Of a stretch of DNA of 64,000 nt, positions 7,661-53,305 are shown piece by piece. This DNA comes from Alphaproteobacteria bacterium (GTDB taxonomy: Bacteria > Pseudomonadota > Alphaproteobacteria > DATDPM01). Made by a program: the position numbers and the translations under genes. Location: positions 2,291-66,290 of the forward strand of contig JAZGAE010000155.1 of assembly GCA_036475545.1 (NCBI GenBank), read 5' to 3'. Numbering within the stretch: position 1 is the first letter of the stretch; the number at the start of each line of letters is the position of its first letter. The notes below the pieces were generated by a model. The model did no database searches, had not been told where the DNA came from, and saw nothing but the letters and a program-made list of their open reading frames with translations.

Positions 7661-8851
7661 CTAGTCGGTGCCCGGGCTCTCCGGCCCCTCGGGATAGCGC
7701 CGTGAGAAGCGGCGTCCGAGGCTCGTCAGGATCTCGTAGCCGATGGTGCCCGCGTCCGCCGCCAGGTCGTCCACCGTGTAATGCGGGCCGATGAGCTCCA
7801 CCCTCGCGCCGGGCCGCGCCAACGCCGCCGGAACATCGGACACGTCGAGCGTGATCAAGTCCATGGAAACGCGTCCTACGACCGGCACCCGGATGTCCCC
7901 TATGAAGGCGCTGCCCCGGTTGCTGAGCGACCGAAGATAGCCGTCGGCATACCCCACCGGGACGGTGGCTATGCGGCCTCGCCGGGGCACTTGGTAGGTG
8001 GCACCGTAGCCAACGGTCATAGGGCTGTCAACGTCGCGCACCTGCAGGATCGGGGCCTCCAGCCGGATGGCCGGAGCCAGCGGATTGGGCCGCTCCATGA
8101 CGGGCCGCAGGCCATAGAGCGCGGCCCCCGGGCGCGCCAGGTCGAAGTGGTATTCCGGGCCAAGGAATATGCCTGCCGAATTGGCGAGGCTCGCCGGCGC
8201 CGTAGGCAAGCCGGCGCGCGCCGCGCGGAAGGCGTCGAGCTGCCGCGCGTTCAGCGGGTGGTCGGGCTCGTCGGCGCAGGCGAGGTGGCTCATGACGCAC
8301 GCCAAATGCACGTCCGCGAGCCGCTCCGGCTCTCGGGCGAGCGTCGCCGCCTCTTGCGCCGGAAGGCCGAGGCGGGACATGCCCGTGTCCACGTGCAGCG
8401 CCGCGCTCAGCCCACCGCGCCCGCGCGCGTGCGCCGCCCACTCCGCGACCTGGGCGAGGTCGTTGAGCACCGGGAAGAGCCGGTGTTCCTCGAACTCGGC
8501 GGCCGTGCCGGCGGCCGGCCCGTTGAGGACGTAGATCGCCGCCTCGCCCAGGAGCCGCCTGAGCGCGATGCCCTCGTCGAGGTCGGCGATGAAGAAGTCC
8601 CGGCAGCCGGCGGCGGCGAGCGCGGGCGCGATCTCGGAGAGCCCCAGGCCGTAGGCGTCGGCCTTGACCACGGCGCCGCAGCGGGCACCCGCAAGCCTCG
8701 AGGCCAGCGACCGGAAGTTTGCGGCCACCGCCGCAAGATCGATGGTCAGCGTCGCCTTGCCGCGGGCGGCCGCGGGCGGCGGCGGATCGCCTCCGGGGTC
8801 GCTCCGGGGGTTGCGAGCGGCCCCGCGCGGGCCCCGGTCAGGCGAACGCAT
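7661..8851 (-). CDS. alr: alanine racemase
   Basis: PLP-lysine motif VVKADAYGLG and C-terminal GRVSMD motif. dnaB-alr synteny. The start is uncertain: the ATG at 8851 overlaps the dnaB stop by 14 nt. Confidence 0.8.
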   Translation of the reverse strand: MRSPDRGPRGAARNPRSDPGGDPPPPAAARGKATLTIDLAAVAANFRSLASRLAGARCGAVVKADAYGLGLSEIAPALAAAGCRDFFIADLDEGIALRRLLGEAAIYVLNGPAAGTAAEFEEHRLFPVLNDLAQVAEWAAHARGRGGLSAALHVDTGMSRLGLPAQEAATLAREPERLADVHLACVMSHLACADEPDHPLNARQLDAFRAARAGLPTAPASLANSAGIFLGPEYHFDLARPGAALYGLRPVMERPNPLAPAIRLEAPILQVRDVDSPMTVGYGATYQVPRRGRIATVPVGYADGYLRSLSNRGSAFIGDIRVPVVGRVSMDLITLDVSDVPAALARPGARVELIGPHYTVDDLAADAGTIGYEILTSLGRRFSRRYPEGPESPGTD

Positions 8852-13888: not shown

Positions 13889-14472
13889 TATGACTCGGCT
13901 CCTTCCGGTTCTTCCTGCTCGGTTGTGGCTTTGCCGACTTTTGTCTCTTCCGGTGTCTCTTTCGAGGGACCCGCTCCTTCCTTCTCTTCAACAGCGGTCC
14001 GCTTGCTCTTGTCGGTCGCTTCGCCGCGCTCCTCCTTGCTCTCGCGCCGTTCACGCTCTTCGCGGCCGTCGCGCCGTCCGCGTTCGTCGCGGCCATCGCG
14101 CCGTCCCCGTTCGTCGCGGCCGTCGCGCCGTCCCCGTTCGTCGCGGGACGCGCGGGACTGCATTACAACGGACGGACCGGTCTCGAGCTCGTCCACCCTG
14201 AGGGTGAGAAACCGCAGCACGTCCTCGTTGATCCGCATCTGGCGCTCCATCTCCTGGACCGCCGACCACGGAGCGTCGATGTTGAACAGGACGTAATGTC
14301 CCTTGCGGTTCTTCTTGATCCTGTAGGCGAGGCTCCTGAGCCCCCAGTGTTCCTTCTTGGTCACCTCGCCGCCGTTCTCCTTGACTACGGAGGCGAAGCG
14401 CTCCGCGAGGCCCTCGACCGCCGATGCCGAGATGTCCTGGCGCGCGATGAATACGTTTTCGTAATAAGCCAA
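13888..14472 (-). CDS. rpsF: 30S ribosomal protein S6 with a repetitive charged C-terminal tail
   Basis: N-terminus [13 protein letters not shown]. The TAA stop overlaps the rpsR ATG (TAATG). The C-terminus carries RDERGRRDG x3, encoded by a 27-nt tandem repeat. Confidence 0.9.
14054..14158 (-). repeat. In-frame 27-nt tandem repeat (about 3.9 copies) inside rpsF
   Basis: Units of cgttcgtcgcggcc(g/a)tcgcgccgtccc repeat head-to-tail from 14054 to 14158 and encode the RDERGRRDG repeats. Confidence 0.8.
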
Positions 14473-23550: not shown

Positions 23551-23580
23551 AGGACGGCACGTGTGATGGCCTTGGGTGAT

Positions 23581-23622
23581 CCTCCGGCGCAGTCCGTTCA
23601 ACTTGACCGGATTATGCTCTAG
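23581..23622. repeat. Copy 1 of a 42-nt dispersed repeat (cctccggcgcagtccgttcaacYtgaccggattatgctctaR); on the minus strand it begins at the pdxA TAG stop
   Basis: It matches 38944-38985 at 41 of 42 positions. It lies between pdxA and rsmA, about 30 nt upstream of the rsmA ATG. Confidence 0.8.
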
Positions 23623-24671
23623 GCGACCGAGGCGGACCTGTCGGCCGCGCTCCGGCGTCGGACCATGTCGGCGGCCATGGCGAGCGCCGCCACGAGGCTC
23701 GATTCGCGCGCTTCGCCGGAGCCGGCGATGTCGAGCGCCGTGCCGTGGTCCGGGGAGGTGCGAACGAACGGCAGCCCCAGGGTGATGTTGACGCCGTGAT
23801 CGAAGTCGATGGTCTTGAGCGGGATGAGCGCCTGGTCGTGGTGCATGCAGATCACCGCGTCGTGGGCGCGCCGCGCCGCCTCGTGGAAAAGGGTATCCGC
23901 GGGCGAGGGGCCGGCGACCTCGAGGCCGAGCGCGCGCAGCTCCGCGACCGCCGGCGCGATGACGTCGATCTCCTCCGAGCCGATATCTCCTTCTTCCCCG
24001 GCATGGGGGTTGAGCGCGGCCACGGCGAGCCGCGGGCGGGCGATAGCGAAATCGGTGACGAGGGACGCCGCCACGACCCGCCCGCAGGCCACGATCCGGC
24101 GCCGGTCGAGCGCGGCGACGGCCTCGGCCAGCGGCAGATGGACCGTGACGGGAGCCACCCTGAGCCCTGGGCAGGCAAGCATCATCACAGGCAAAACGGG
24201 CGCGCCCGTCTCGGCGGCGGCCAGCTTCGCGAGATACTCGGTGTGGCCAGGGTATTCGAACCCGGCCGCATGAAGGGTCTTCTTGTGGATCGGGTTGGTC
24301 ACGACCGCCGCCGCCTCGCCGGCATGGGCGAGCGCCACGGCCCGGTCGATCGAAGCGACGACGGCGGCCGCGTTCTTGGGGTCCGGCCGCCCGGGCGTCA
24401 CCCCTGCCGGCAAGGCCAGCGGCAGCACCGGGAGCGCGGCGGCGAAGGCCCGCGCCGCCTCGCGAGGCGAGCCGACCGCGCGCACGCGCACGGCGAGGCC
24501 GAGGGCGTGCGCCAGCCGCTCGAGCCGGGCCGGATCGTCGATCACGAAGAAGGGGGGCGCCAATCCGTTTCCGCCGCCGGTCCGCCGCAGCCACGCCCGC
24601 AGCGTGATTTCGCCGCCGATTCCGGCGGGCTCGCCCATGGTCAGCGCCAGCGGGACGGAAGCGGACGTCAT
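23619..24671 (-). CDS. pdxA: 4-hydroxythreonine-4-phosphate dehydrogenase
   Basis: 350 aa from the ATG at 24671 (MTSASVPLALTMGEPAGIGGEI). Its start overlaps the surA TGA in an ATGA. Metal-binding His motifs (HTEYL, NPHAGE). Confidence 0.85.
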   Translation of the reverse strand: MTSASVPLALTMGEPAGIGGEITLRAWLRRTGGGNGLAPPFFVIDDPARLERLAHALGLAVRVRAVGSPREAARAFAAALPVLPLALPAGVTPGRPDPKNAAAVVASIDRAVALAHAGEAAAVVTNPIHKKTLHAAGFEYPGHTEYLAKLAAAETGAPVLPVMMLACPGLRVAPVTVHLPLAEAVAALDRRRIVACGRVVAASLVTDFAIARPRLAVAALNPHAGEEGDIGSEEIDVIAPAVAELRALGLEVAGPSPADTLFHEAARRAHDAVICMHHDQALIPLKTIDFDHGVNITLGLPFVRTSPDHGTALDIAGSGEARESSLVAALAMAADMVRRRSAADRSASVA

Positions 24672-36564: not shown

Positions 36565-38325
36565 ATGAAGATCCTCTCCTGCCATGCCGGTTACCACGAC
36601 TCGGCCGCCGCGGTCTTCGACGAATACCGTCTGTTGGCCGCGGTTCAGCAGGAGAGGCTGACCCGCAAGAAAAGCGATGGCAACGGCGTCCCCTTCGCGT
36701 GCATCGACGAGTGCCTGGCGATCACCGGGATATCGCGGCAAGACATCGACGTGGTGGTGGTGACCCGCGGGGCTCTGCCCTGGCGCTACTACACTCACTT
36801 CGCGGGAGGCCGGTTCGTCGAGGGCAAGGTGCGGCAGTGGCTGGGCAAGGAGAAGCTCAAGAGCATGGCTCTCGAGCTGCGGCGTTCCGGCGGCACCCAG
36901 GCAGAGGGGATCTTCAATGGCCGGGGCTTCCTCGTCGATCTCGGGTTTGGCGCCGACGTCAAGCTCGGGTTTTGCAACCACCATATGTCCCATGCCTTGC
37001 CGGCCCTGTTCTACACGGATTGGGATGACGCGCTGTTGGTCACTTCGGACGGGGGCGGCGACAACGTTCAGTACAGCCACCGTGTGTTCCGCGATGGGAG
37101 GATCGAGACCCTCTACGGCGGCGACGAGTACCTGCTGGCGCCGACGCGGATAGACAGCCTTGGCCTCGCCTATGGTTACGCGACGCAGGCGCTGGGCTAC
37201 CGAATCAACCGTCACGAGGGAAAGCTCACCGGGCTCTCGGCCTATGGGAGCCCGGCGCTTTTCGATGACCTCGCCCCGCATTTCACGTTGCACCGGAACG
37301 GCCAGATCGAGAGCGACTTCGAGAGCTACCCGGCGATGCGCCGATTCATCTTCGAGCTGGCGGAAGGAGCGGCGCCGGAAGACGTGGCGGCCTCGATCCA
37401 GAAACTCCTGGAAGAATTCATGTTGGGCTCGGTGCGGCGCCTCCTCGAGCTGCACCCCGTCCGCCACCTGGGCCTCGCGGGCGGGGTGTTTGCGAATGTT
37501 AAACTCAACCGGCTCTTGGCCGAGCACACGGCCGCCGAGGAGGTATTCATATTTCCCGCCATGGGGGACGAGGGCCTCGCCGTGGGCGGCGCGCTTCAGT
37601 TCCTGTTGAAGCGCGACGGGCTGGAGCGGTGGCTGTCCGAGCGCCACCGGCTCGACGACGTTTATCTGGGCAGAGCCTACGACGACAGCATCGATGCGGT
37701 GCTCTGCGAATGTCCCGGGGTGGCCCGAGTCGCGGAGGAGCCCGTGAAAGAGAGCGTGGCGCTACTTGCCTCGGGGCGGATCGGAGCGATTTACACCGGG
37801 CGCATGGAATTCGGGCCGAGGGCGCTGGGCGCCCGGAGCATCCTCGCCAGCCCGCTCGACAGGACGATCAACGCAACCTTGAACGCCCGGCTCGGGCGCA
37901 CCGAGTTCATGCCTTTTGCGCCGGTGGTGGCCGAGGAGGACGCGGAGGCGGTGTTCGAGATCGGTCCGCTTAACCGTTACGCCGGGCGTTTCATGACCAT
38001 GACCTGCGCCGTGCGCGCAGCGTGGCGGGACAAGATCCCGGCGGTCATTCACGTCGACGGGACGGCCCGTCCGCAGATCGTCGCGCGCCACCAGAACCCG
38101 CTCTATTTCGATATCCTCGAGCTCTTCAAGGCGGCGACCGGCCTGCCGGTTCTGATCAACACCAGTTTCAACGTGCACGAGGAGCCGATCGTCAACCGGC
38201 CCGAGGAATGCTTGCAGGCGCTCGTCGATCGTCGTATCGACTTCGTTGTGACCTCGAGGGGGGTCTACGCGATGGCGGACGAGCCGCTTGATGGCCGCCG
38301 AATGGAACCGCCGGAGCACCCGTAG
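36565..38325 (+). CDS. carbamoyltransferase, NodU/CmcH/TobZ family
   Basis: 586 aa. N-terminal ASKHA-like domain (MKILSCHAGYHDSAAAV...QQERLTRKKSD). HHMSHA motif. C-terminal YrdC-like carbamoyltransferase domain. Confidence 0.8.
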   Translation: MKILSCHAGYHDSAAAVFDEYRLLAAVQQERLTRKKSDGNGVPFACIDECLAITGISRQDIDVVVVTRGALPWRYYTHFAGGRFVEGKVRQWLGKEKLKSMALELRRSGGTQAEGIFNGRGFLVDLGFGADVKLGFCNHHMSHALPALFYTDWDDALLVTSDGGGDNVQYSHRVFRDGRIETLYGGDEYLLAPTRIDSLGLAYGYATQALGYRINRHEGKLTGLSAYGSPALFDDLAPHFTLHRNGQIESDFESYPAMRRFIFELAEGAAPEDVAASIQKLLEEFMLGSVRRLLELHPVRHLGLAGGVFANVKLNRLLAEHTAAEEVFIFPAMGDEGLAVGGALQFLLKRDGLERWLSERHRLDDVYLGRAYDDSIDAVLCECPGVARVAEEPVKESVALLASGRIGAIYTGRMEFGPRALGARSILASPLDRTINATLNARLGRTEFMPFAPVVAEEDAEAVFEIGPLNRYAGRFMTMTCAVRAAWRDKIPAVIHVDGTARPQIVARHQNPLYFDILELFKAATGLPVLINTSFNVHEEPIVNRPEECLQALVDRRIDFVVTSRGVYAMADEPLDGRRMEPPEHP

Positions 38326-38466: not shown

Positions 38467-38889
38467 ATGGCCGTCGAACGAACGCTTTCAATCCTCAAGC
38501 CCGACGTCACGCGCCGCAATCTCACCGGCGAGGTCAACGCGCGTCTGGAGCGGGCAGGCTTGCGCATCGTGGCGCAGAAGCGCATGTGTCTAACCCGCGA
38601 GCAGGCGGAAAAGTTCTACGCCGTGCACGCCAGCCGCTCTTTCTTCAAGGACCTGTGCGAGTTCATGATTTCCGGCCCGGTGGTGGTCCAGGTCCTCGAA
38701 GCCGAGAACGCGATCGCGCTCAACCGCGACGTCATGGGCGCCACCAATCCGGCTAATGCCGCGGAGGGGACGATCCGCAAGGACTTCGGCGAGTCGGTCG
38801 AAGCGAACTCGGTCCACGGATCGGATTCGCCCGAGACCGCTGGATGGGAGGTCGCTTTCTTCTTCGCCGAAATGGAGATCGTCGGCTGA
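38467..38889 (+). CDS. ndk: nucleoside-diphosphate kinase
   Basis: 140 aa. Motifs [10 protein letters not shown] and NSVHGSDS (active-site His). Confidence 0.95.
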
Positions 38890-38943
38890 GCTCTCGCTCC
38901 GGACCGGCGCTTCGCGCCCCGCTCCGGCCCGCGGCACAAAATT

Positions 38944-38985
38944 CCTCCGGCGCAGTCCGTTCAACCTGACCGGATTATGCTCTAA
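38944..38985. repeat. Copy 2 of the 42-nt dispersed repeat; on the minus strand it begins at the TAG stop of the 40-aa CoxIV-like gene
   Basis: 41 of 42 positions identical to 23581-23622. Confidence 0.8.
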
Positions 38986-39104
38986 GTGAGGAAGAGGGCC
39001 ATCAGCGCCAGAATCGCGGCGATACCAGCGGTGCTGATGTTGAGCAGTCTGATGAAGCCTTTCCAGTCATGCTGGTGCCGCTGCAATTCGCTGTCCACGG
39101 ACAT
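38982..39104 (-). CDS. small membrane protein resembling aa3-type cytochrome oxidase subunit IV (COX4_pro_2-like), 40 aa; absent from the ORF track
   Basis: The start is an ATG at 39102-39104 preceded by AAGGGGGAAG, and the stop is a TAG at 38982-38984. The translation is MSVDSELQRHQHDWKGFIRLLNISTAGIAAILALMALFLT. This has a His-rich N-terminus, a KGF(I/V)RL motif and a single TM helix ending in LMA(L/I)FLT, matching my recollection of alphaproteobacterial CoxIV peptides. Confidence 0.45.
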   Translation of the reverse strand: MSVDSELQRHQHDWKGFIRLLNISTAGIAAILALMALFLT

Positions 39105-39245
39105 CACTTCCCCCTTTTTCGTTGTTCGAGCAAGAACCGGCCTCCCACCATTGGCCTCGACGTATAGCCCAGAGAGACTCCTCGGTGGAAGGGGTTAACC
39201 GCGTCTCGGCCTTCGCGGTCCGGCGTCGAGGTTGCGAGGCGGCGC

Positions 39246-39905
39246 CTATAGCTGTTCCTCGGCCGGATTGATGAGAACCCCTTCGGGGACGTCCGCGCCG
39301 TCCACCAACACCACCTCGCCCGTGACCCGCACCCGGTCCTCCGCGATAAGGCGCACCGCCAGCGGATAGATACGGTGCTCGGCGGCAAGTACGCGGTCGG
39401 CCAACGTGTTGACCGTATCGCCCGGGCGGACCGGGACGGCGGCCTGGATGATGACGGGGCCCGAATCCATGTCCGGGCGAACGAAGTGAACCGTGCAGCC
39501 GGTGAAGCGCACCCCCGATTCAAGGACCCGCTGGTGGGTGTTGAGGCCCTTGAAGGCCGGCAGCAACGACGGGTGAATGTTGATCACCCGGTCCCGCCAC
39601 TTGGCGATGAAATCCTCGTCCAAGAGCCGCATGAATCCCGCTAGGCAGATGAGCCTCACCCCGCTTGCCGAGAGCACCCGGTCGAGGGCGGCGTCGAACT
39701 CGTTGCGGTTCGGGAAGTCGCGATGGTTGATGGCCGTGGTCGGGAGTCCGGCGGCCTCGGCGCGGGCGAGCCCCCGCGCCTTCGGTTCGTTGGAGAGCAC
39801 GATGGCGATCTCCGCCGGGAAGTCGGGGCGGGCGCAGGCGTCGATGATGGCTTGCAGATTGGTGCCCCGCCCCGAGATGAGGACCGCGATCTTCACCCCT
39901 GCCAT
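39246..39905 (-). CDS. purN: phosphoribosylglycinamide formyltransferase
   Basis: Begins [17 protein letters not shown] at the ATG at 39905. Motifs NIHPSLLP and active-site [11 protein letters not shown]. Confidence 0.9.
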
Positions 39906-49463: not shown

Positions 49464-49469
49464 TCATCG

Positions 49470-50912
49470 ATGTCGGCACGGGTTCTGGTTGTTGACGACG
49501 TTCCGGCGAACGTCAAGCTGCTGGAAGCGAAGCTGACGGCCGAATATTTCGACGTCATAACGGCCCCCGACGGCCCGTCCGCACTGGCAGCCGCCGAGAG
49601 CGAGTTGCCCGACATCATATTGCTCGACGTGATGATGCCCGAGATGGACGGCTTCGAGGTCTGCCGGCGCCTGCGGGAAAACCCCCGGACCGCGCACATT
49701 CCCGTCGTCATGGTCACGGCGCTCAGCGAGGTTTCCGACCGCGTCCAGGGGCTCGAGGCGGGGGCCGACGATTTCCTCACCAAGCCGGTCAACAACATGG
49801 CGTTGTTTGCCCGCATCAAATCCCTGGTGCGGTTGAAGATGACCATGGACGAATGGCGCCGGCGCGAGGAGACGTGCGACCGGTTCGGCGTTCTTTCCGA
49901 CGGACGCCTGCCGGCCCGGGAAGACGCTTCGGAGGCCCGTGTGCTCGTGGTGGAGACTGGCGAGTCGCGCGGCGATTGGATCGCCAAGGCCTTGGCGCAG
50001 GACGGGGACGAACTCACGACCGCCCCGGGGGCCGAGGCCGGAATCGAGTTGGCGCGAGACGGGGCTTTCGATCTCATCATCACCGATGCGACCGCTTCGG
50101 GCGAGGCGGACGGCGATCCGCTGCGCCTTTGCTCGTCGCTCCGTTCGATGGAGGAATGCCGATCGGTTCCCATCCTCATCATGGTGGAGGCGAACGAGGT
50201 GGAACGCCTGGCCAAGGGGCTGGACCTGGGCGTCAACGATTACATCGTGAAGCCGATGGATCCCCACGAATTATTGGCGCGGGTGCGCACCCAGGTTCGC
50301 GGCAAGCGCTACCAGGATCGGCTTCGCGCCAATTTCGAGCGCAGCCTGTCAATGGCGCTCACCGATAACCTGACCGGCCTCTACAACCGGCGCTACATGG
50401 ACGTCCATCTCGGCACCATGATGCAACGCATGGTCGAAGAGGGCCGGCCCTTGGGCCTGCTCATGATCGATATCGATTTCTTCAAGTCCGTGAACGACCG
50501 ATACGGCCACGGGGTGGGCGACGAGGTCTTGTTCCAGATGGCGAAACGCATCTGCGGCTGCGTCCGCGGCTTCGACATGGTCGCTCGACACGGCGGCGAA
50601 GAGTTCGTCGTCGTGCTCCCCGGAGCGCCCCCCGAGGTTATCCACGGAGTCGCCGAACGTCTTCGGCACGCCATCGCCGAGGAGCCATTCCCTGTTTCCG
50701 ACGCCGTCGGAAAGATCGAGGTCTCGGTCAGCGTCGGCGCCGCCATGGTGGAAGGCCCCGGCGACGCGCCCAAGTCGCTCCTCAAGCGGGCCGACATGGC
50801 GATGTATCAGGCCAAGCGCCAAGGCCGCAATCGTGTGATTGCCGACTTCGATTACGACGAAGACGTAACCTCTGAATCGGCCACGCCGCAGAAACTCTCG
50901 GCCGTTTCCTAA
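49470..50912 (+). CDS. pleD: response regulator / diguanylate cyclase PleD (REC-REC-GGDEF)
   Basis: Two receiver domains followed by a GGDEF domain with a GGEEF active site (RHGGEEFVV) and an I-site RxxD. Confidence 0.85.
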   Translation: MSARVLVVDDVPANVKLLEAKLTAEYFDVITAPDGPSALAAAESELPDIILLDVMMPEMDGFEVCRRLRENPRTAHIPVVMVTALSEVSDRVQGLEAGADDFLTKPVNNMALFARIKSLVRLKMTMDEWRRREETCDRFGVLSDGRLPAREDASEARVLVVETGESRGDWIAKALAQDGDELTTAPGAEAGIELARDGAFDLIITDATASGEADGDPLRLCSSLRSMEECRSVPILIMVEANEVERLAKGLDLGVNDYIVKPMDPHELLARVRTQVRGKRYQDRLRANFERSLSMALTDNLTGLYNRRYMDVHLGTMMQRMVEEGRPLGLLMIDIDFFKSVNDRYGHGVGDEVLFQMAKRICGCVRGFDMVARHGGEEFVVVLPGAPPEVIHGVAERLRHAIAEEPFPVSDAVGKIEVSVSVGAAMVEGPGDAPKSLLKRADMAMYQAKRQGRNRVIADFDYDEDVTSESATPQKLSAVS

Positions 50913-51217: not shown

Positions 51218-51330
51218 ACCCGCCGGAGGGGACCTGTCAACCCCGCCGGAGGGGACCTGTCAACCCCGCCGGAGAGGACCTGTCAACCCCGCCGGGGGGA
51301 ACCTGTCAACCACGGCGGGGATGGACGCCT
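51218..51330. repeat. Tandem array of about 4.5 copies of a 23-nt unit (ACCCCGCCGGAGGGGACCTGTCA) between ctpA and rpmG
   Basis: Copies at 51218-51239, 51240-51262, 51263-51285 and 51286-51308, plus a degenerate fifth. Each unit contains the near-palindrome CCCCGCCGGAGGGG. Confidence 0.85.
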
Positions 51331-51377
51331 GGCGCGGCCAGCGGAGCCTTCGCGCGCTCGCGGCCGGCCGCGCCGCC

Positions 51378-52988
51378 TCAACGTGTGGCCACGGCCGGGA
51401 AAGAGAGCTGCAAGGCGCGGGCGTAGAGTTCCGCGTCGCCAAGCAGCTTCCGCGTCACCTCCAGGTCGGCCTCCGGCATGCTGTGACGGGACGGGCAGAC
51501 CCGCCGCAGCTCCTCGCTCGTCTCCCGGTCGCGCCCCTGATCGCCGCGCGAGAGGGCGAGGGTGGATCCCGGCTCGGCCGCGCCGCGAAGCAGGTCGTCC
51601 ACCGCGCCGGGCGCCGAGGTCTGCGGGTTGCTGGTGCAGATCGTCGGTGCCACGCCCAGCTCGTGGAGCACCTGGCCGGAGGGCGCATGCATGCGAGACC
51701 AGGTCAAGATCAACTCCCCGTTGTTGGGGAGCCGGATGACGTTCTGCACCGTTCCCTTGCCGAACGAGGTGCTGCCGATCACCAACGCGCGGCCGTGGTC
51801 TTGAAGGGCCGCGGCGACGATCTCTGCGGCCGAGGCGGATTGCCCGTTGATGAGGACGGCCATCGGCAGACCGTTGGCAATATCATCGTCCGTGGCGTCG
51901 AATTCCTGGTTGCTGTCGGGATGGCGGCCGATGGTCGAAAGAATCCGCCCGCGGGAAAGGAAGAGGTCGGCGACGGCCACCGCCTGGTCGAGCAGGCCGC
52001 CAGGGTTGTCCCGCAAATCCAGGACCACTCCCGCGATCTCCGCCTCCTGCTTCAGCTGCGAGAACGCATCGGAGACTTGGGTGGTCGTGCGCTGATTGAA
52101 GCCGATGACGCGAAGGTATGCGAGGTCCCCTTCGAGGCGGGCCTCTACCGTAGTGGGGATGATGAGTTTGCGCGCGAGGGTTAGCTTCAGCGACCCTTCG
52201 AGGCCGGTGCGGGCGAGGGTGAGCTCCACGCGCGAGTCCACCCGCCCGCGCAGGCGCCGTGCGACCGCGCGGTGGTCGAGGCCGGCGACCGGGGCGCCGT
52301 CCACATGGGTAATCAGATCGTCGGCCTGGATGTCCGCCCGCGCCGCCGGCGAGTCCGGAAGGACTGCCGTGACTTGCACGCCATCCCCCGCCAACGCGAA
52401 GCGGATGCCGATCCCGCCGAACCCCTCGCGGGCGGCGCGCTGCTCGAGCGCCTCCTCGGCGCCGGTGTACCGCGAAAACCCGTCCAGCCGGGAGAGAGCC
52501 CCCTCGAACACCACCTGATAAAGCCTTTCCGTGGAGGCATATTCGAGGTGAGGAGAACCCGCCCGACCGGCATCCAAGGCTATCGCGGTGAGCTTCGCCC
52601 ACCCGGCCGCGTCCGCATCGTCGGGCGCGTCGAGCTTGGCGAGGACCCCGTCGGGGCCACGAAGCTCCACCAGGTCGCCGTTGCGCGCGACGGAGATCCC
52701 CGAATCCAGCGTAGACAGTCCCGAAAGTCCCTCGAACGCCACGGTTCCGATGTCAACGGGGTCGACGTAGCGCTCGGTGATGGATTGGTATCCCACCGCA
52801 AACACCCGCCCTACCTCGCCGGCCGGGAATGCGTCGCCGGACCGTTGGCCGGGCGTGGCGCAGGACACCAATGCGGCCGGGACCAGCAGGGCAAGGGAAA
52901 GCCGTTTGAGCGCGGCCACCGGCGCCCCAGTGGATCGGCGGAAACGGCCCCGGATCTTCGCGCCACGGGCTATCTGGGCCCCCATCAT
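51378..52988 (-). CDS. ctpA: S41 family C-terminal processing peptidase
   Basis: PDZ domain followed by an S41 domain (DLRDNPGG, GQSASAAEIVAAAL, FGKGTVQ). The likely start is the ATGATG at 52985-52988; the track extends to 53222. Confidence 0.75.
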   Translation of the reverse strand: MMGAQIARGAKIRGRFRRSTGAPVAALKRLSLALLVPAALVSCATPGQRSGDAFPAGEVGRVFAVGYQSITERYVDPVDIGTVAFEGLSGLSTLDSGISVARNGDLVELRGPDGVLAKLDAPDDADAAGWAKLTAIALDAGRAGSPHLEYASTERLYQVVFEGALSRLDGFSRYTGAEEALEQRAAREGFGGIGIRFALAGDGVQVTAVLPDSPAARADIQADDLITHVDGAPVAGLDHRAVARRLRGRVDSRVELTLARTGLEGSLKLTLARKLIIPTTVEARLEGDLAYLRVIGFNQRTTTQVSDAFSQLKQEAEIAGVVLDLRDNPGGLLDQAVAVADLFLSRGRILSTIGRHPDSNQEFDATDDDIANGLPMAVLINGQSASAAEIVAAALQDHGRALVIGSTSFGKGTVQNVIRLPNNGELILTWSRMHAPSGQVLHELGVAPTICTSNPQTSAPGAVDDLLRGAAEPGSTLALSRGDQGRDRETSEELRRVCPSRHSMPEADLEVTRKLLGDAELYARALQLSFPAVATR

Positions 52989-53254
52989 GGCTCGATCAAA
53001 CCACCGCTTCGTCGTGATTCCGCTGCGCGTGAGGGCCGCCACCCGTCCCCGCCTCATCCGGCCGGCGGCCCCGCAAACGCGGATCGTTGCATCCTTCACC
53101 CGAGGCATCAAGGCGCGCGTGATACTGGGCAACGCAAAGCGCTCCTTGGCGCCACGCCACGGCGGCGAAACGCGCTCTCTCGAAGGCAAGGAACCGTGTG
53201 AGTCATGGGTCGCTGGGAGCATCTCAGCTTCGCTGGGGCTGATTCTTGTAACCG

Positions 53255-53305
53255 CTATGCCATGAATTCATCAAATTATTTTTAATTTTGTGTTACCAGC
53301 CGGGC
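53255..53305. promoter_or_regulatory. the lowest-GC stretch in the window (ccatgaattcatcaaattatttttaattttgtgttaccagcc); a candidate divergent promoter region between ctpA and the hydrolase gene
   Basis: Composition only. Confidence 0.2.

Follow-up and report, generated by a model that had tools for sequence, protein, structure and literature searches.

A 40-codon gene downstream of purN in an alphaproteobacterial contig encodes a PF07835-family peptide, a probable subunit IV of aa3-type cytochrome c oxidase

The window, meaning here the whole 64,000-nt stretch of alphaproteobacterial DNA that was analyzed (68% GC), contains a short minus-strand gene in the interval between purN and a convergently oriented ndk (Table 1). 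The purN stop codon lies 141 nt 5′ of the ATG of the small gene, and purM is located further upstream, also on the minus strand. A preliminary description of this DNA had placed a 40-residue gene between ndk and purN; the open reading frame was found there with an identical translation, and both flanking genes were confirmed by Pfam. Pfam searches with approximately 30 further ORFs of the window detected housekeeping genes only, including purF, radA, dnaB, fab genes, gmk, ksgA, surA, lptD, pepA, holC, aspS, topA, dprA and pyrB/C-like genes. Between holC and ndk is a plus-strand gene (36565-38325) for a 586-aa carbamoyltransferase (Carbam_trans_N/C, NodU/CmcH-like), which is absent from the otherwise syntenic locus L010, where holC directly follows ndk; it interrupts a conserved block as a lineage-specific insertion. 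The window opens with a plus-strand gene (173-1531) for a homologue of the flavocytochrome c sulfide dehydrogenase flavoprotein (FCSD), which hints that the source organism may possess a capacity for sulfide oxidation.

Table 1. Coordinates of the small gene, its associated sequence elements and its neighbors in the window.
Feature	Position	Strand	Remarks
40-codon CDS and TAG stop	38982..39104	-	Encodes MSVDSELQRHQHDWKGFIRLLNISTAGIAAILALMALFLT, 4.48 kDa; PF07835 / aa3 oxidase subunit IV family
Predicted transmembrane helix segment, residues ~17-39	38988..39056	-	Kyte-Doolittle and AlphaFold2
Shine-Dalgarno-like AAGGGGGAAG	39107..39116	-	From sequence; AGGGGG core 5 nt 5′ of the ATG
Candidate promoter block CCCTTCCACCGAGGAGTCTCTCTGGGCTATACGTCGAGGCC in the purN-coxIV spacer	39153..39193	-	TTCCAC-N17-CTATAC; from alignment to L001
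Dispersed repeat copy (family D6), TAG followed by AGCATAATCCGGTCAGGTTGAACGGACTGCGCCGGAGGA	38943..38989	-	Begins at the stop codon of the small gene
purN (phosphoribosylglycinamide formyltransferase)	39246..39899	-	PF00551, E 8e-60; same-strand upstream neighbor
ndk (nucleoside diphosphate kinase)	38467..38889	+	PF00334, E 5e-54; convergent downstream neighbor

The ATG of the small gene occupies 39104-39102 and its TAG stop codon 38984-38982. The purine-rich Shine-Dalgarno-like box ends 2 nt (TG) before the ATG and is kept as AAGGGG[G/C]AA in the related loci L001, L002, L004 and L010. The strong ribosome-binding site reported previously is indeed present, although at a spacing of N2 and not N3. 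A GTG codon 3 nt further up, at 39107, from which the ORF list reads a 41-aa product, was rejected as the start, the relatives having GCC or ACC in its place; the ATG, which is conserved together with the purine-rich box, is taken as the start of the gene. Between 50 and 90 nt 5′ of the ATG is a block (CCCTTCCACCGAGGAGTCTCTCTGGGCTATACGTCGAGGCC) that is largely invariant when the window is aligned with L001, a relative of 68% identity, the surrounding spacer having diverged, and the TTCCAC-N17-CTATAC arrangement that it contains is a candidate for the gene's own promoter. A consensus scan for promoters (including sigma-70) and terminators around the small gene returned no site. Transcription could start at a promoter within the 141-nt spacer or continue through from purMN.

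The gene was missed by the ORF track that accompanied the sequence because 40 aa falls under the 60-aa cut-off applied, and what was displayed instead is a longer, 70-aa ORF on the plus strand (38986..39198). One reading of the region is that the 40 codons stay open by chance in GC-rich intergenic DNA, and that either the 70-aa ORF is the real gene or the region is non-coding (a terminator, repeat element or 3′ UTR). Short ORFs occur often at 68% GC, and a 40-codon open frame would by itself be within chance expectation; a dispersed repeat abuts the stop codon, no model was matched when the 40-aa peptide was scanned against NCBIfam, and no canonical promoter or terminator is present. The composition and conservation of the two frames nevertheless point the other way. 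GC content by codon position is 0.54/0.37/0.80 in the 40-aa ORF, a coding-like pattern resembling that of the long genes of the window, and 0.45/0.59/0.68, which is non-coding-like, in the 70-aa ORF. When all six frames were compared across 10 orthologues the sense frame alone was open in 10/10, whereas the antisense frame corresponding to the 70-aa ORF is broken by stops in the orthologous loci L008, L011 and L019. A Pfam scan of the 70-aa ORF gave no match, and its dismissal as spurious in the preliminary description is correct on all three of these grounds.

Constraint at the protein level is evident from pairwise comparisons of seven orthologous genes, in which the 40 codons are retained even though synonymous sites are saturated (pS 0.6-0.8). 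The dN/dS of the small gene is 0.2-0.7 in most of these pairs; the two nearest-neighbor pairs fall outside this range and each differs by a handful of substitutions. Reading frame, length (~40 aa) and the purM-purN-coxIV/ndk position are retained in many loci down to ~45% identity, and public assemblies contain the exact protein together with relatives at 95, 72, and 69% identity, all of 40 aa and all 3′ of purN. The exact protein has already been called on contig JAZHCD011531039.1 of a metagenome assembly (GCA_044240385.1), a contig of which the window forms part, where it carries a precomputed PF07835 match; the gene can thus be described as unannotated, as it had been, with respect to the 60-aa ORF track but not with respect to public gene calls. 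An Rfam scan at the small gene found no family at threshold, the one sub-threshold match, to a eukaryotic snoRNA, being dismissed. Added to these data are a Pfam score above the curated cut-off and 124 significant relatives of the same length (see below), and while the open frame taken alone would be unremarkable, the Pfam and profile matches and the conservation are beyond chance. The comparisons indicate that the 40-codon ORF is a genuine gene, and the chance-frame interpretation, which they contradict, can be regarded as refuted and retains practically no probability.

The dispersed repeat that adjoins the gene has the consensus TAG-AGCATAATCCGGTCA(A/G)GTTGAACGGACTGCGCCGGAGGA(ATTTTGTGCCGCGGGC.GGAGCGGGGCG) and a length of ~47-75 nt. 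A second copy, 94% identical to the first (38943-38989), is found in the window at 23580-23626, at the TAG stop codon of a minus-strand gene upstream of ksgA, and the 23-nt repeat core has two matches in the window against zero expected. The repeat also follows the small gene directly in loci L001-L005. In L010 it is missing after the small gene, which is itself retained, and a copy sharing ~75 nt with that of the window is instead located 1.8 kb away (7885-7960). That the repeat starts no earlier than the stop codon and is dispensable in this way is a further argument against the coding frame being part of a repeat. Because the repeat sits elsewhere in L010, a small mobile or recombining element is suggested, possibly of the REP/MITE type and targeting TA(G); a partner inverted repeat was not detected. 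The repeat seems to have no part in the function of the small gene. Two tandem arrays were also recorded in the window. At 51219-51333, between a GGDEF response-regulator gene (49464-50912, plus strand) and a peptidase S41 gene (51378-53267, minus strand), are four 23-nt units (CCCGCCGGAGGGGACCTGTCAAC), and at 14024-14158, upstream of the fabD-fabG-fabF cluster, are four 27-nt units with ~63-80% identity that may lie within a repetitive coding region.

The preliminary description had proposed looking for the frame downstream of purN in related genomes, and it is kept there in related sequences. purN is located 5′ of the small gene in L001-L005, in L008-L012 and in 10 metagenome loci, and the convergent ndk is conserved in most loci of this purN type. 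The arrangement of DUF2066, purM-purN-coxIV and convergent ndk recurs in three more contexts, namely in Pelagibius sp., in the 72% relative and in a 46% relative. In the last of these, insertion of an IS element with a DDE transposase (L011 6237-7362; L012 6237-7343) has separated the small gene from ndk and left the purN-coxIV pair intact. The position immediately after purN and on the same strand, conserved at ~45% identity even where an IS separates ndk, could be taken as a sign that the peptide has a regulatory link to the purMN operon, for instance through translation of a 3′ element that affects purMN or ndk expression, and that its similarity to subunit IV is incidental. Such a role is highly improbable, given that constraint acts on the amino acid sequence of a hydrophobic helix with family motifs and not on RNA structure, that the RNA fold of the 3′ flank of the gene is unremarkable (z-score -1.0), and that the same protein family is found in two other unrelated contexts.

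HMMER comparison of the peptide with PF07835 (COX4_pro_2), which had been put forward as a check on the proposed family, gave a positive result of 26.8 bits (gathering score 22; E 6e-6) and aligned residues 9-39 with positions 16-46 of the 46-position profile. No family besides PF07835 was reported by Pfam for the peptide at E <= 1, neither PF12270 (Cyt_c_ox_IV/CtaF) nor FixQ/CcoQ being matched. The score is modest, the lowest for PF07835 among the family members scanned, and the match is dominated by the hydrophobic helix; homology was tested beyond Pfam because a match of this kind in a 40-aa hydrophobic peptide could be fortuitous. An exhaustive HMMER search with a 3-sequence profile against 1.84 billion representatives (E <= 1e-3) returned 124 proteins, nearly all of 38-60 aa and aligned end to end, and PF07835 was matched independently by 116/122 short relatives (E <= 0.01), for which the modal length is 40-43 aa.

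The profile built from 122 sequences detected solved subunit IV chains of the aa3 oxidase in the PDB, those of Rhodobacter sphaeroides (1M56_D, E 7.9e-7; 5WEH_D, E 1e-6) and of Paracoccus denitrificans (9FKS_j, E 3.1e-5; 7ATE_D, 4.8e-5; 1QLE_D, 5.9e-5), and besides subunit IV chains nothing under E 0.8. Alignment of the clade containing the window gene (A6) with the Rhodobacterales clade (A7) by hhalign gave a probability of 96.4% and an E-value of 1.2e-9 over 33 columns with ~30% identity. Shallower queries were less informative: with the 3-sequence profile the R. sphaeroides subunit IV chain was non-significant (E 0.4) and ranked behind a chance match to a reductase, and single-sequence phmmer found no oxidase chain in the PDB, returning only a chance match to a necrosis-inducing protein. 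A Foldseek search of the PDB with the modeled single helix likewise gave no match, a lone helix being an uninformative query. During a contig scan with the 3-sequence alignment, a match to LQRHQHDW inside ruvC/ruvA of Yoonia ponticola was rejected as off-frame and due to chance. The assignment to the aa3 oxidase subunit IV family made in the preliminary description is thereby borne out, both by the PF07835 match and by the profile matches to solved subunit IV chains.

Positions conserved across the 122 relatives are H10, W14, G16, F17, R/K19, L32, L34, M35, A36, F38, and L39 of the peptide. They include an aromatic-x-G-F-x-(R/K) motif at the start of the helix, represented in the peptide by W14-K-G16-F17-I-R19, in which, among the 122 relatives, F17 is shared by 121, W14 by 101 and G16 by 83. 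The KGF(I/V)RL motif and the LMAxFLT helix end, both given in the preliminary description as features of the family, coincide with family-conserved positions, whereas the N-terminus called His-rich there contains two His residues in this peptide. Kyte-Doolittle hydropathy, calculated in steps of 19 residues at a time, reaches its maximum of 2.15 across residues 20-39, within a C-terminal hydrophobic stretch of ~23 residues, and AlphaFold2 predicts one continuous helix from residue 3 to residue 39 with a mean pLDDT of 92.7.

No cox or cta genes are present in the 64-kb window, which extends 25-39 kb to either side of the small gene. The GHPEVY signature and the CuA motif, which we take to identify oxidase subunits I and II, respectively, and which were applied without a positive control, were found in 0/68 loci totaling 426 kb, 12 of these loci having at least 5 kb on both sides. 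The verified genes are similarly placed, since in P. denitrificans PD1222 and the sphaeroides group coxIV is preceded by genes for an acyl-CoA dehydrogenase and an MBL-fold hydrolase and followed by one for a 215-aa protein of unknown function, with no cox genes nearby. The neighborhoods of the window gene and of the verified ctaH genes differ and positional orthology between them was rejected. The earlier statement that such genes are orphaned from the cox operon consequently holds for the window, for the P. denitrificans and sphaeroides genes and for the 68 loci, and an orphan location is normal for the PF07835 family, being typical of it though not strictly defining.

The contexts in which other members of the family occur were surveyed in a metagenome scan seeded with 12 closer sequences and one peptide pattern, so that the proportions given here are those among the first 600 matches and are biased, not a census. 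A relative was present at 62 loci among the matches listed, to which neighbor classes were assigned by tblastn with reference neighbors. On this basis 16/62 are linked to purN/ndk, 35/62 have a peptidase M3 gene on one side and pntAA-pntAB-pntB on the other, and 11/62, mostly on very short contigs, have neither class of neighbor. Immediate proximity to the transhydrogenase genes, on their upstream side, is thus the position of most sampled PF07835 clades other than that of the window. The pntAB-linked loci, in which the genes are on the same strand, include L015, L026, L028, L029, L034, L036, L048, L052-L054, L060, L063, L067, and L071-L076. In a marine clade with a 36-aa PF07835 protein the stop codon is 9-15 nt from the start of pntAA, a spacing that looks operon-like.

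These observations bear on a further interpretation, in which the product is a real PF07835 membrane peptide that does not serve the aa3 oxidase in this lineage, or does not serve it exclusively, and acts in other membrane complexes or alone. Consistent with it are the absence of any family member beside cox genes in the 68 loci (426 kb), the conserved and clade-specific neighborhoods (purN/ndk in 16 and peptidase M3-x-pntAA-pntAB-pntB in 35 of the 62 loci among the matches listed), the short gap to pntAA in the marine clade and the fact that an association with the oxidase has been demonstrated experimentally for two Rhodobacterales species only. However, the homology to crystallographically observed subunit IV is significant at the profile level, and a non-cox context is no argument against an oxidase role because the verified Paracoccus and sphaeroides genes also sit in unrelated neighborhoods. 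Small genes, moreover, often hold their position through synteny alone, and a literature search for the PF07835 family or its linkage to pnt or purine genes found no paper. A departure from the oxidase in this lineage is consequently considered unlikely. A narrower proposal starts from the conserved, clade-specific adjacency to pntAB and, in the clade of the window, to purN/ndk: the PF07835 helix would work in a second membrane complex as well, possibly the proton-translocating transhydrogenase, or independently, and the oxidase label would have been carried over from two Rhodobacterales species to other lineages. This is rated as very unlikely.

The small gene thus very probably encodes a 40-residue, single-pass inner-membrane peptide corresponding to the bacterial aa3-type cytochrome c oxidase subunit IV (CtaH/CoxIV type). 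Its membership in the oxidase complex of the source organism is something that we infer from homology; its neighbors, which belong to purine and nucleotide metabolism, give it no functional support. By analogy with what is known of the enzymes from P. denitrificans and R. sphaeroides, the short polar N-terminus would be cytoplasmic, with K15 and R19 flanking the helix, and the C-terminus would be at the periplasmic face. The helix would dock at the periphery of the catalytic core (subunits I and III) of a presumed aa3 oxidase whose genes would lie outside the window, and the peptide would bind no cofactor and be a non-catalytic subunit with a structural, lipid-packing or assembly-stabilizing role. 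The subunit IV chain has been physically observed in the oxidase structures of P. denitrificans and R. sphaeroides only (PDB entries). We know of no demonstrated function for subunit IV even in Paracoccus, where its deletion reportedly gave no detectable phenotype.

The gene is an ordinary and already known member of a described family, whose relatives are routinely named by NCBI and whose own sequence has already been called, and it adds one member to a family that lacks a defined function even in model organisms. It also illustrates how an ORF threshold of 60 aa leaves genuine, conserved genes for membrane proteins out of view and puts a longer but spurious antisense ORF in their place. The survey of contexts, in which the family is encoded away from oxidase genes and in a few clade-specific neighborhoods, could help in tests of the role of subunit IV.

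The best characterized members of the family are P. denitrificans CtaH (1QLE_D, 7ATE_D, 9FKS_j) and the subunit IV of R. (Cereibacter) sphaeroides (1M56_D, 5WEH_D), which belong to the same Pfam family as the window peptide and share profile-level homology with it over a segment that starts at the aromatic-x-G-F-x-(R/K) motif and takes in the entire transmembrane helix. In each case there is a single long helix and the protein ends within a few residues of it. The window peptide is shorter, at 40 aa compared with ~50 aa for the mature reference chains, and is without their His-rich N-terminal extension of ~10 residues (MASHHEITEHKHGEMD...). It has W-K-G-F where the references have F-A-G-F, within T-F-A-G-F-(I/V)-(K/R), and terminates in ...LMALFLT in place of ...FLALANS/A. 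Both gene types are located away from cta/cox, beside purN and ndk in the window and beside genes for an acyl-CoA dehydrogenase and an MBL hydrolase in the reference species. The gene models for the reference proteins in P. denitrificans PD1222 (L013 6001-6201, 66 aa) and the sphaeroides group (L014 6001-6186, 61 aa) are longer than the ~50-aa PDB chains, and for this reason their annotated starts are probably too far upstream.

Closer to the window peptide is a protein that NCBI lists for Pelagibius sp. (Rhodospirillales, Rhodovibrionaceae) as 'aa3-type cytochrome c oxidase subunit IV'; it is also of 40 aa, is 49% identical and is encoded in the same DUF2066/purM-purN-x/ndk arrangement, so that the two differ by sequence divergence only. 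The pntAB-linked clades of PF07835, represented by a 50-aa protein (MADHSEVAYTTADGNDY...YEGF..., 81.7 bits) and a 36-aa protein (MDNQNHKNTWNNF..., 45.1 bits), score above the window peptide against the Pfam model and have in common with it the C-terminal ...ILxLMAIFL(T/L) ending. Unlike the window gene, which follows purN, their genes are located between a peptidase M3 gene and pntAA-pntAB-pntB.

Small hydrophobic supernumerary subunits packed against the catalytic core are also known from other terminal oxidases, namely CtaF/Cyt_c_ox_IV (PF12270) of the Bacillus and actinobacterial caa3/aa3 enzymes and CcoQ and CcoM of the cbb3 type. None has a sequence relationship with the window peptide, for which PF07835 was the sole Pfam report at E <= 1. 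CtaF additionally has more than one helix and is encoded within the cta operon (PMC4013037). In the account given in PMC4742706, which cites Witt and Ludwig (1997), the Paracoccus subunit IV was recognized in the crystal structure, and cloning and deletion of its gene followed. CcoM, like the Paracoccus subunit, was discovered through its electron density, and its gene lies apart from the operon of its oxidase (PMC4742706).
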